Assembly (NCBI GenBank): GCA_052387235.1
Contig: JBQTJJ010000033.1
Coordinates: forward strand, 4,052 to 68,051
Reading direction: 5' to 3'
Origin: Actinomycetota bacterium
GTDB lineage: Bacteria; Actinomycetota; Acidimicrobiia; Acidimicrobiales; GCA-2861595
DNA: 64,000 nucleotides
Shown here: in pieces, positions 61,087 through 64,000 of the stretch
Layout: each line of letters opens with the position of its first letter
Position numbering within the stretch: the stretch's first letter is position 1
Translations under genes and position numbers: made by a program
Notes under the pieces: model-generated
Databases searched by the model: none
Told to the model about the DNA's origin: nothing
Seen by the model: the letters and a program-made list of their open reading frames with translations, nothing else

Positions 61087-62847
61087 ATGGCCACCAGGTC
61101 GAAGATCTACGTGGAGGGACCGCGGGGCGTGCGGGTGCCGTTCACCGAGGTGGGGCTGGCGCCTTCGCCGGACGGCCGCCCCAACCCCCCCGTCCGCCTC
61201 TACGACACCAGCGGGCCGGGGTCGGAGCCCACCGAGGGCCTGCCGCCGCTGCGCCGGGAGTGGATCCGAGGGCGCGGCGACGTGGAGGAGCACCCCGGCC
61301 GCCGGGCCACCCTCCGCGACGACGGCCGGGCCGCCGTGCGCAGGGCCGGTGGCGCCGAAGCGCCGGCGCCGTTCGCCGCCCGTCCCCGCCCCGTGCTTCG
61401 GGCCAGGCCGGGCCGCACCGTGACCCAGCTGCACTACGCCCGCCGGGGCGAGGTCACGCCCGAGATGGAGTTCGTGGCCGTCCGGGAGGGCTGCACTCCG
61501 GAGAAGGTGCGGGACGAGGTCGCCCGGGGCCGGGCCATCCTGCCCGCCAACGTCAACCACCCCGAGTCCGAGCCCATGGTGATCGGGCGCGAGTTCCTGG
61601 TGAAGGTCAACGCCAACATCGGCAACTCGGCCGTCACCTCGTCGGTGGCCGACGAGGTGGACAAGCTGACCTGGTCCACCAGGTGGGGCGCCGACACCGT
61701 GATGGACCTGTCCACCGGCGCCGACATCCACACCACCCGGGAGTGGATCCTGCGCAACTCGCCGGTGCCCATCGGCACCGTGCCGATCTACCAGGCCCTG
61801 GAGAAGGTGGACGGCTCGCCCGAGGACCTCACGTGGGAGCTGTTCCGGGACACCCTCGTGGAGCAGGCCGAGCAGGGCGTCGACTACTTCACCATCCACG
61901 CCGGCGTCCTCCTCCGCTACGTGCCGCTGACCGCCACTCGCGTCACCGGCATCGTCAGCCGGGGCGGGTCGATCATGGCGGCGTGGTGCCTGGCCCACCA
62001 CCAGGAGAACTTCCTCTACACGCACTTCGAGGACATCTGCGAGATCATGGCCACCCACGACGTGGCCTTCTCGCTGGGCGACGGCCTGCGCCCCGGGTCC
62101 ATCGCCGACGCCAACGACGAGGCCCAGCTCTGCGAGCTGCGCACCCTGGGCGAGCTCACCCGGGTGGCGTGGCGCCACGACGTGCAGGTGATGATCGAGG
62201 GCCCGGGCCACGTGCCGATGCACAAGATCAAGGAGAACATCGACCTCCAGCTCGAGGTCTGCCACGAGGCGCCCTTCTACACCCTCGGCCCCCTCACCAC
62301 CGACGTGGCCCCCGGCTACGACCACATCACCTCCGGCGTCGGCGCCGCCATGATCGCCATGTGGGGGACGGCCATGCTCTGCTACGTCACCCCCAAGGAG
62401 CACCTGGGCCTGCCCGACCGCGACGACGTGAAGCAGGGCGTGATCGCCTACAAGATCGCGGCCCACGCCGCCGACCTGGCCAAGGGCCACCCCGGCGCCC
62501 AGGCCTGGGACGACGCACTGTCCAAGGCCCGCTTCGAGTTCCGGTGGGAGGACCAGTTCGACCTGGCCATGGACCCCGACACGGCCCGGGCCTACCACGA
62601 CGCCACCCTCCCGGCCGAGCCGGCCAAGACGGCCCACTTCTGCTCCATGTGCGGCCCCAAGTTCTGCTCCATGCGCATCAGCCAGGACGTGCGCGACTAC
62701 GCCGCCTCCCACGGCGTGGACGACGAGGTCGCCCTCGAGCTGGGCATGAAGGAGAAGGCGGTGGAGTTCGTCGCCGGCGGCGCGTCGCTCTACGCCGCTC
62801 CCGAGTACATAGCTCGCCATTTTGGCGAGCTATTTACTCGGGAGTGA
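61087..62847 (+). CDS. thiC: Phosphomethylpyrimidine synthase ThiC
   Basis: 586 aa. Radical-SAM-like ThiC signatures ([22 protein letters not shown]). Preceded by a TPP riboswitch. Confidence 0.95.
62809..62833. terminator. AT-rich perfect 10-bp hairpin at the convergent thiC/grdA 3' ends (candidate bidirectional terminator)
   Basis: ATAGCTCGCC-atttt-GGCGAGCTAT followed by TTACT. It lies inside the last codons of thiC and ends immediately adjacent to the grdA stop codon (62834-62836). Confidence 0.5.
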
Positions 62848-63307
62848 GGGGTTGCGCCCGGATGCCGGCGACGGCGGCGTTGAGGGCGTCGGCTTCGAGG
62901 ATGTCGGCCATCACGCCGATCTGCTCGTCCCACACCTCGGGCGGGACGTCGCTGCGGACGTCGTCGTCGAGCACGTGGTACACGTCGAGGCCCAACTGGA
63001 CCCCTGCCAGTGCACCTGCATATGCCGGGTCTCCCAGCCGGACCGTCTCCGCCGAGATCTCCGCCGCCTCCGGATCGGGGGCACCGAGGATCACGACGAC
63101 CTGGTCACGGCCGTGGGTCTCCGCCAGCCGGAGGATGGCCTCCTGGCTCTGCAGGTCCATGGCGCCTGACGCCGTTCAGACGAAGCACTCCGTGGCCGTG
63201 AACACGACCTTGCCGCCGGCCGCCTCCACGCAGGCGGCGATGGCGGGGCCGGAGACCCCGTCACGTTCGCCCAGGGCGACCACCTTCTTGCCTTCCAGGA
63301 CTCCCAT
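62834..63307 (-). CDS. grdA: Glycine/sarcosine/betaine reductase complex selenoprotein A (in-frame UGA = selenocysteine)
   Basis: The tail of ORF 63176..63466 ([43 protein letters not shown]) ends at a TGA (63176-63178). That TGA is in frame, 6 codons upstream, with ORF 62834..63160 (MDLQSQ...[21 protein letters not shown]...). The joined product reads [14 protein letters not shown], matching the GrdA motif CFVUTAAGAMDL. 157 aa; AAGGAG SD. Confidence 0.85.
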
Positions 63308-63309
63308 GC

Positions 63310-63660
63310 CTACTCCTTCCCGGCGCCGGCAGCGGCGCTCAGGGTCTCGTCCAACCAGGCCCGGACCTTTGCCTCGTTGAGGTCGGCTCCGTTGATCCTC
63401 CCCACCTCCTGGCCGTCCCTGAACAGCAGGAACGCCGGCAGCCCCATCACGCGTAGCTCGATGCACAGCCGGCGGGCCTTGGGCGCCTCCAGCTTCACGA
63501 CCCTGAGCTGATCGGCCCGCTCCTCCGCCAGCCCCTCGATGAACGGCATCAGGGCCATGCAGGGCTGGCAGTCGGTGCCCCAGACGTCGACGAGCGACGT
63601 GCCCTCCGCCACCAGGTCCCGGAACGTCTCCTTTGTCGCCTCCGCGATCGCTCCAGCCAT
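63310..63660 (-). CDS. Thioredoxin-like protein with non-canonical CQPC active site
   Basis: 116 aa with a Trx fold (VDVWGTDCQPCMALMP...GLPAFLLFRDG). It lies immediately upstream of grdA, and its last codons carry the grdA SD. Confidence 0.85.
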   Translation of the reverse strand: MAGAIAEATKETFRDLVAEGTSLVDVWGTDCQPCMALMPFIEGLAEERADQLRVVKLEAPKARRLCIELRVMGLPAFLLFRDGQEVGRINGADLNEAKVRAWLDETLSAAAGAGKE

Positions 63661-63661
63661 G

Positions 63662-64000
63662 TCAGCCTCCTCCGTTTCGTTCCAGCAGCACGCTCATGCC
63701 GTCCGAGAGCTGCGACATGCGCCCGAGGAACAGGCTGCCCTTGGCCAGCAGCAGCACCCGGCCGGCGTCGCCCGTGGTGAGGCGGTCGACGGCGTGGGGC
63801 AGGTAGCACAGGGCCGACGCCAGGTGCCCCTGGGTGGGGGCGAACCCGGGCATGCCGTGGGCGGCGGCGAAGGCGGCGATGTCGGCCCGGTCGATCTCGC
63901 CCCTCTGGGCGGCCAGGGCGGCGATGGTCTTGTAGTTGCGGGCCGGCACGTCGCCCGAGCCCTGGGGCTCGGTGATCTCGGGGTTGTGCAGCTCGGTGGC
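63662..64000 (-). CDS. 3' part of a thiolase-fold/SpoVAD-like protein, possibly glycine reductase component C subunit (GrdD-like); 5' end outside window
   Basis: The open frame runs to the window edge. The C-terminus GDAGRVLLLAKGSLFLGRMSQLSDGMSVLLE resembles the SpoVAD/GrdD-type C-terminus as I remember it. It is tightly linked (TGAcATG) to trx-grdA. Confidence 0.4.
   Translation of the reverse strand, partial: ATELHNPEITEPQGSGDVPARNYKTIAALAAQRGEIDRADIAAFAAAHGMPGFAPTQGHLASALCYLPHAVDRLTTGDAGRVLLLAKGSLFLGRMSQLSDGMSVLLERNGGG

Follow-up and report, generated by a model that had tools for sequence, protein, structure and literature searches.

The reference for reductases acting on glycine, sarcosine or betaine is the glycine reductase of Peptoclostridium acidaminophilum, Clostridium sticklandii and C. 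difficile, which combines the selenoprotein GrdA with the pairs GrdB-GrdE (component B) and GrdC-GrdD (component C) and with TrxA-TrxB. Cysteines of GrdE generate the pyruvoyl group that binds glycine or sarcosine as a Schiff base, and GrdD, a PlsX-like subunit, makes acetyl phosphate. Grd-type reductases have been treated as rare, strictly anaerobic enzymes of Stickland or acetogenic metabolism. Here, they were compared with genes found at the end of a 64,000-nt stretch of DNA (hereafter the window; contig JBQTJJ010000033.1, assembly GCA_052387235.1) from a bacterium assigned to the Acidimicrobiales order in the Actinomycetota phylum. The window probably ends in the last three genes (grdC, a thioredoxin gene and grdA) of a five-gene operon encoding a selenoprotein reductase of the glycine/sarcosine/betaine type that is driven by thioredoxin. 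The safest reading of these sequences is a functional Grd-type reductase forming a distinct variant, in which the A component, the C-beta subunit and the thioredoxin appear orthologous to those of the known system, while the B component and product release appear to differ.

Several systems beyond the clostridial one have been described. The betaine subunit GrdI and the fluoroacetate subunit FarE lack the processing cysteines and are not proproteins, and FarBE of Cloacibacillus porcorum, an anaerobe, delivers to a canonical set of GrdA, GrdC and GrdD (PMC10838667). In Desulfovibrio desulfuricans, the best-studied non-Firmicute case, both C subunits are present (PMC7547702). Early selenoproteome surveys tabulated the selenoproteins of genomes then classed as Actinobacteria; Symbiobacterium thermophilum, at that time assigned to the phylum, was listed with GrdA and GrdB (PMC1794560). 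The Firmicute operon used here as reference (L083, taken from the protein collection) has the gene order grdE-grdB-grdX-trxB-trxA-grdA-grdC-grdD-selA-selB.

Profile searches assigned all three genes at the window end to the Grd system (Table 1). The grdA product scored 205.7 bits on the NCBIfam model for selenoprotein A (NF040748; cut-off 130) and 200.6 bits on Pfam GRDA, the latter in a single unbroken match across the in-frame UGA, and was 51% identical to the GrdA of the Firmicute operon. The grdC fragment covered positions 368-476 of the 477 positions of NF040746 ('component C subunit beta'; E 2e-45) and matched Pfam DUF5940 (147 bits), and its complete orthologue in a close relative (L004; 479 aa) scored 559 bits on NF040746, above the cut-off of 450. 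The thioredoxin matched Pfam Thioredoxin (PF00085; 61.3 bits). Its top NCBIfam model was clostridial TrxA (87.7 bits, under the cut-off of 140), with 42.7 bits for E. coli-type TrxA, and it was 47% identical to TrxA of the Firmicute grd operon. Because of this identity and the top score on the clostridial model, the CQPC thioredoxin is, by these matches, a lineage travelling with the grd genes. The gaps of 1 and 2 nt between grdC, trx and grdA indicate one operon. The original prediction had named a thiolase-like gene, a CQPC thioredoxin and grdA on the minus strand, and the profile matches confirmed all three, including the selenoprotein gene with its in-frame TGA; the thiolase-like gene is grdC itself, hence grdC does not lie beyond the window edge as had been supposed.

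Among 42 grd-linked thioredoxins, CQPC was the commonest active site (17 sequences), CAPC was found in six and CGPC in only two, with CKPC, CQTC and others also seen; the Firmicute reference operon has CVPC. The predicted non-canonical active site is thus usual for thioredoxins of grd clusters. The dipeptide within CxxC was highly variable among the related loci that have the thioredoxin, and a dedicated thioredoxin gene was absent from about half of the cassettes (loci L008-L062), where grdA directly follows grdC.

Only 419 nt could be added to the contig, from a 1445-bp Logan contig (L001; 99.9% identical, retrieved by an exact-protein look-up) that lengthens the grdC fragment to 251 codons. 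The contig was not found in JGI metagenomes, where a 33-mer scan returned 38 contigs, the best of them 87% identical. The 251-aa GrdC fragment was scanned against one genome per GTDB species, giving 103 relatives, of which 80 loci were kept; the searches for neighbouring genes given below cover these 80 loci with 10-kb flanks. The top relatives were metagenome-assembled genomes (MAGs) of Acidimicrobiales, with 88-95% identity over the fragment, and next came other Acidimicrobiia, Thermoleophilaceae, Egibacteraceae, a Pseudonocardiaceae MAG, Chloroflexota and Dormibacterota. Relatives from Desulfobacterota, Alphaproteobacteria and Gammaproteobacteria showed 53-59% identity. In a neighbour-joining tree, the GrdC sequences of Actinomycetota, Chloroflexota and Dormibacterota were monophyletic (bootstrap 100/100), and this group is called the clade below.

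Mapping by tblastn gave the order grdE-like, grdB-like (with an in-frame TGA), grdC, (trx), grdA in essentially every well-flanked clade locus, and the same cassette occurred in about 59 species of the three phyla. The rest of the cluster had been expected past the window edge, which was right in part: every syntenic relative has a grdE-like and a grdB-like gene upstream, so that further grd genes were found, by proxy in relatives only, and trxB is absent from those clusters. At about 59 related loci, none had trxB, grdX or grdD in the cluster. Nor is the system the isolated oddity it had seemed to be, since it belongs to a large environmental clade; its GrdE-like protein matched 1255 protein clusters (90% identity) at E <= 1e-20, and the cassette was common in soil and desert metagenomes. 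Clustering of open reading frames (ORFs) across the 80 loci showed, beyond the five cassette genes and shadow ORFs, no family present in more than nine loci. In one Acidimicrobiia MAG (L047, JAHFUQ010000023), a grdC-trx-grdA set without upstream grdE and grdB is preceded, at a distance of about 2 kb, by [NiFe]-hydrogenase genes (large and small subunits; 4239-7234, minus strand), which hints either at H2 oxidation linked to the reductase or at a split cassette.

The B component of the clade departs from that of glycine reductase in both of its proteins. Where reference GrdE reads AIVSGN-C-VTA-C-DKNTTY, the aligned GrdE-like proteins read AVVSGQ[LFY]GH-P[SGA]LKNPT, without the SGN-C...C cysteines. 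Conserved flanks make the alignment of this site unambiguous, and the processing cysteines were missing from each full-length GrdE-like protein of the clade (about 44); several proteobacterial loci retain them. In the GrdB-like protein, the motif around selenocysteine (Sec) was T-U-GTGTRCG in 59 clade loci versus the canonical U-G[TS]CTRCG (UGTGTRC versus UGTCTRC in the reference), with loss of the first cysteine of U..CxxC. The GrdB-like protein of L004 passed the subfamily model TIGR01918 (401 bits; cut-off 65) and missed those for defined substrates: it scored 373 bits on the glycine GrdB model TIGR01917 (368 bits for a Chloroflexota member; cut-off 602) and 350 of the required 775 on the betaine GrdH model NF040795, and the Chloroflexota member likewise passed the subfamily model alone, missing those for glycine, sarcosine and betaine. 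In L004, the sarcosine models NF040794 and NF040793 gave 412 (cut-off 800) and 218 (cut-off 780), and the FarE model NF053623 gave 143 bits (cut-off 675). Neither GrdA nor the GrdB-like protein had a match in a sequence search of the PDB.

These features bear on the view, close to the clostridial-type enzyme of the original prediction, that the window encodes an ordinary, complete glycine reductase with grdD, trxB and grdX elsewhere in the genome. Such an enzyme would yield acetyl phosphate from glycine, either to gain ATP or balance the redox state when oxygen is low or to complete a reductive glycine pathway. GrdA and GrdC do reach the NCBIfam equivalog cut-offs, and public pipelines call the B-subunit genes 'glycine reductase' or 'sarcosine reductase': the NCBI label for the clade genes is 'glycine/sarcosine/betaine reductase component B subunit', and the JGI labels are 'sarcosine reductase', 'glycine reductase' or 'betaine reductase'. 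The GrdB-like protein also retains the element TxGNxTxV of a GrdB motif that comes from a GTDB-wide survey (PMC9751293). Three of the six elements of that motif do not match, however, so the survey filter would have excluded the clade, and neither IHGGYDR nor TTGTGT, the elements diagnostic of GrdF, is present in the protein. The glycine GrdB model, which the clade misses by a wide margin (373 versus 602), is passed by two deltaproteobacterial controls (L063 and L065). With the pyruvoyl-precursor cysteines missing in all clade members, the Sec motif of GrdB altered, three equivalog cut-offs missed and the evidence on GrdD given below, an ordinary glycine reductase is unlikely. The original interpretation was thus upheld in part, for the gene identities among other points and not for a textbook glycine reductase.

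The second departure concerns the C component. GrdC-GrdD fusion proteins identify GrdD as a PlsX-like protein (PF02504), and the excised GrdD part scored 488 bits on NF040747. The alternative that GrdD is a GrdC paralogue was rejected, as a search with a GrdC hidden Markov model (HMM) was uninformative and the fusions showed GrdD to be PlsX-like. With the validated excised GrdD, a second GrdD, the reference GrdD and E. coli PlsX as queries (phmmer --max and tblastn), no match to GrdD (NF040747/PF02504) was found in the 64-kb window or in any of the 80 loci with their flanks, which speaks against an ordinary glycine reductase. The genes grdX and trxB were likewise absent from the window and within 10 kb in the 80 loci. 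The thioredoxin is therefore present without trxB at the window end and at every clade locus; a housekeeping trxB is likely elsewhere in the genome, and to our knowledge every actinobacterium carries one, a point in favour of the ordinary enzyme.

An exhaustive HMMER search among 1.84 billion representative proteins recovered 388 GrdD relatives, about 25 of them full length. All four high-GC relatives looked up lay directly after a grdC gene, and in one of the operons (L084) the grdC beside grdD was 61% identical to the Firmicute type versus 50.5% to the window's clade. GrdD adjoined, or was fused to, a different GrdC clade in five of five operons read and in the fusion proteins, and the neighbour-joining tree split GrdD-linked or GrdD-fused GrdC from GrdD-less GrdC with a bootstrap of 100/100, a further point against an ordinary glycine reductase. 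Outside the actinobacterial clade, loci of Desulfobacterota, Alphaproteobacteria and Gammaproteobacteria MAGs (L063-L081) share with the clade the GrdC lineage that is split from GrdD-linked GrdC, with no GrdD within 10 kb and grdA directly after grdC. Several of them, unlike the clade, have a canonical B component (SGNC cysteines and U..CxxC), two pass the glycine GrdB equivalog, and their GrdC is only 43-48% identical to that of the window's clade. Because GrdD-less grdC-grdA clusters occur there as well, GrdD-independence may mark a wider division of the Grd family that has gone unrecognised. Compared with the reference operon, which has all of these genes, the clade thus lacks grdD, grdX, trxB and linked selA and selB, follows the order E-B-C-trx-A, and sits here in a 75% G+C, Acidimicrobiales-type host with aa3 oxidase and bc1 complex; the two systems share a C-x-x-U GrdA, an equivalog-level GrdC, a non-CGPC thioredoxin and, in the syntenic relatives, proteins of the GrdB and GrdE families. 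Searches of open-access full text found no paper that describes Grd systems from Acidimicrobiia or from other aerobic members of the Actinomycetota, clusters lacking GrdD, or the missing processing cysteines of this clade.

By analogy with GrdI and FarE, a reductase without the pyruvoyl-precursor cysteines is unlikely to act on glycine or sarcosine, and its substrate is probably another compound. One that needs no Schiff base, namely glycine betaine or another substituted acetate, would be more likely. A betaine-type reductase like GrdHI would convert glycine betaine to trimethylamine and an acetyl unit, and soil actinobacteria would thereby rid themselves of compatible solutes under oxygen shortage. 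As in GrdI, the partner subunit of the clade lacks the processing cysteines and is probably no pyruvoyl proprotein; JGI labels some clade GrdA genes 'betaine reductase', and L087, a canonical grdC-grdD cluster that lies outside the clade, has a BCCT transporter gene after grdD. The GrdH model, however, gave the lowest score of the GrdB-like protein, under its glycine and sarcosine scores. Neither a betaine transporter of the BCCT or Opu type nor a trimethylamine-handling gene was conserved beside the cassette, and FarE shows that cysteine loss also accompanies non-amine substrates. The combination of cysteine loss in the E-type protein with an altered CxxC near Sec in the B-type protein is itself shared with FarB/FarE of C. 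porcorum (PMC10838667). Unlike that system, the clade scores low on the FarE model, is missing GrdD and includes a host that respires oxygen. Betaine thus remains a reasonable candidate for soil bacteria that neither the GrdH score nor the neighbourhood specifically supports, and a dedicated betaine reductase appears somewhat improbable.

Several lines of evidence indicate that grdA is maintained as a selenoprotein gene. TGA was retained at the Sec position in 75 of 75 grdA genes (fetched loci in which grdA was found), and the ratio of non-synonymous to synonymous substitution rates (dN/dS) was 0.16-0.30 for grdA in pairs with five relatives and 0.08-0.38 for the grdC fragment in pairs with relatives, values that indicate purifying selection. 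Downstream of the UGA, a conserved hairpin is a candidate selenocysteine insertion sequence (SECIS). Across 42 Acidimicrobiia-type sequences, 82% of its cells were paired, versus 30-46% with slid partners; pair 30:54 was CG in 17 and GC in 15 sequences, and pair 40:45 was seen as GC, AU, CG and UA. The covariation score was matched by none of 500 shuffles. Part of the compensatory substitutions also alter protein residues, which points to selection acting on the RNA structure. An Rfam scan matched no SECIS family, its sole match being a thiamine pyrophosphate (TPP) riboswitch.

Searches of the window and of the related loci (tblastn on all loci, ARAGORN on 47 of them) detected no selA, selB or tRNA-Sec. 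The close relative L004 carries selD (17931-18935, minus strand, of an 89-kb contig; TIGR00476, 326 bits) 7 kb from the cassette, in the Cys form (motif SCGGCAAK); the stretch of the window matching that position holds a Ser/Thr kinase gene and ctaC instead. Cys homologues of GrdA have been reported as nonexistent (PMC1794560). A 1187-bp ENA contig (L126, k141_167534) encodes a GrdA homologue of the actinobacterial clade (67% identity) with TGC (Cys) at 280-282, where 75 other grdA genes carry TGA; as a lone short contig, it may reflect an assembly error.

The window also encodes subunits I, II and III of a cytochrome oxidase, cytochrome b, a dihaem cytochrome c and the assembly factor CtaG, which shows that the organism can respire oxygen; Pfam matches confirmed the predicted aa3 oxidase and bc1 complex, whose genes lie 5-11 kb from the grd genes. 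In such an aerobe, the grd genes could be a recently imported or decaying remnant without function, given that the classical system belongs to anaerobes and is sensitive to oxygen, that Sec machinery was not found in the window, and that one metagenome contig has a Cys codon in place of Sec. Against this stand the intact ORFs with dN/dS of 0.08-0.38, the invariant UGA with its covarying hairpin, and a clade that is monophyletic and broadly follows the MAG taxon labels. In codon usage, grdA, trx and the grdC fragment fell inside the spread of 30 other window genes; this and the grdA-thiC junction, common to at least six of the closest MAG species, agree with the original view that there was no obvious recent import. 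A functionless remnant is strongly disfavoured and very improbable.

By homology with the Clostridium and Peptoclostridium enzymes, the functional variant favoured here would start with the B component (GrdB-like and GrdE-like proteins), which would cleave a substrate of the form X-CH2-COO- and leave a carboxymethyl group on the selenocysteine of GrdA. GrdC would then turn this group into an enzyme-bound acetyl thioester, leaving GrdA in the oxidised Se-S form, and the dedicated CQPC thioredoxin would re-reduce GrdA, itself presumably recharged by a housekeeping thioredoxin reductase and NADPH. Since GrdD is absent, the acetyl thioester on the KAS-III-like GrdC would have to exit by another route, for example by transfer to coenzyme A (CoA) or to phosphate via another enzyme; transfer to CoA is chemically plausible for a KAS-III-like fold. 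The system would most plausibly serve as an oxygen-independent electron sink for NADPH or as a catabolic route under hypoxia. We tentatively propose, as a possibility, a class of GrdD-less, pyruvoyl-free Grd-type selenoenzymes in oxygen-respiring soil bacteria, acting on a substrate other than glycine or sarcosine and releasing the acetyl group without a PlsX-like step, for example as acetyl-CoA.

Several points weigh against the functional variant favoured here. The main limitation is that the distinguishing features come from relatives rather than from this genome: the B-component genes are predicted from relatives whose GrdC is 83-96% identical. The searches for grdD, trxB, selA, selB and tRNA-Sec covered 64 kb here and the 10-kb flanks of the relatives, and a distant or non-homologous substitute for GrdD elsewhere in the genome is conceivable. 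Loss of the pyruvoyl cysteines disfavours glycine and sarcosine only by analogy with GrdI and FarE, and another carbonyl source is conceivable. The GrdB-like protein resembles betaine GrdH no more than it does glycine GrdB, so betaine gains no preference from homology, and no transporter or catabolic gene was kept beside the cassette in the 80 loci as a hint to the substrate. The loop of the candidate SECIS hairpin, about 40 nt past the UGA, is at the far end of the usual bacterial spacing.

Table 1. Features of the grd region and its surroundings in the 64,000-nt window (74.7% G+C); positions are those of the window.
Feature	Position	Strand	Remarks
grdC, 3' end (component C beta subunit, KAS-III/thiolase-like)	63662-64000	-	last 112 codons and TGA stop (63662-63664); gene exits window
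grd-linked thioredoxin gene (trx)	63310-63660	-	116 aa; active site VWGTDCQPC; start 1 nt past grdC stop
grdA, selenoprotein A	62834-63307	-	157 codons; Sec is codon 44; start 2 nt past trx stop
In-frame UGA (TGA), selenocysteine	63176-63178	-	motif TECFV-U-TASGAMD (C-x-x-U)
Conserved hairpin, candidate SECIS	63124-63150	-	AGAGCC-A-GGAGG-CCAU-CCUCC-GGCUGG; 29-55 nt past U of UGA
Perfect 9-bp hairpin	62810-62832		TAGCTCGCC-ATTTT-GGCGAGCTA; just 3' of grdA stop, inside thiC ORF tail
thiC	61087-62847	+	convergent with grdA, 3' ends overlapping
TPP riboswitch (RF00059)	60987-61096	+	56.5 bits, gathering score 54.3; immediately upstream of thiC
Ser/Thr protein kinase gene	59185-60918	-	
COX2	57342-58100	-	Pfam
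COX1	about 55660-57342	-	Pfam
Cytochrome b and dihaem cytochrome c	between 51.8 and 55.1 kb	+	Pfam
COX3	51518-52102	+	Pfam
CtaG assembly factor	50751-51539	-	Pfam

The convergent 3' ends of thiC and grdA lie over an AT-rich island (62810-62847), and the final 12 or so codons of the thiC ORF are missing in relatives. The perfect hairpin in this island is a probable bidirectional terminator for the grd operon and thiC, although a simple terminator scan made no call there, and the genuine end of thiC or a shared terminator probably falls within 62810-62847. The Ser/Thr protein kinase has proline-rich tandem repeats (~APAPPPTGPRAVTEP) between its kinase and C-terminal domains, and was not found at the corresponding position of L004.

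Dozens of uncultured species of Acidimicrobiia, Thermoleophilia and Chloroflexota carry this cassette, and the organism of the window encodes a terminal oxidase, in a family so far treated as confined to strict anaerobes; surveys that filter on clostridial GrdB motifs would miss the clade. As annotation pipelines label its genes 'glycine reductase' or 'sarcosine reductase', metabolic reconstructions, including calls of the reductive glycine pathway, may err for these lineages. If the variant is functional, selenoprotein-dependent reductive chemistry would extend to aerobes, and the cassette would show which parts of the complex are dispensable and might also reveal a novel substrate or a novel way of releasing the acetyl group.

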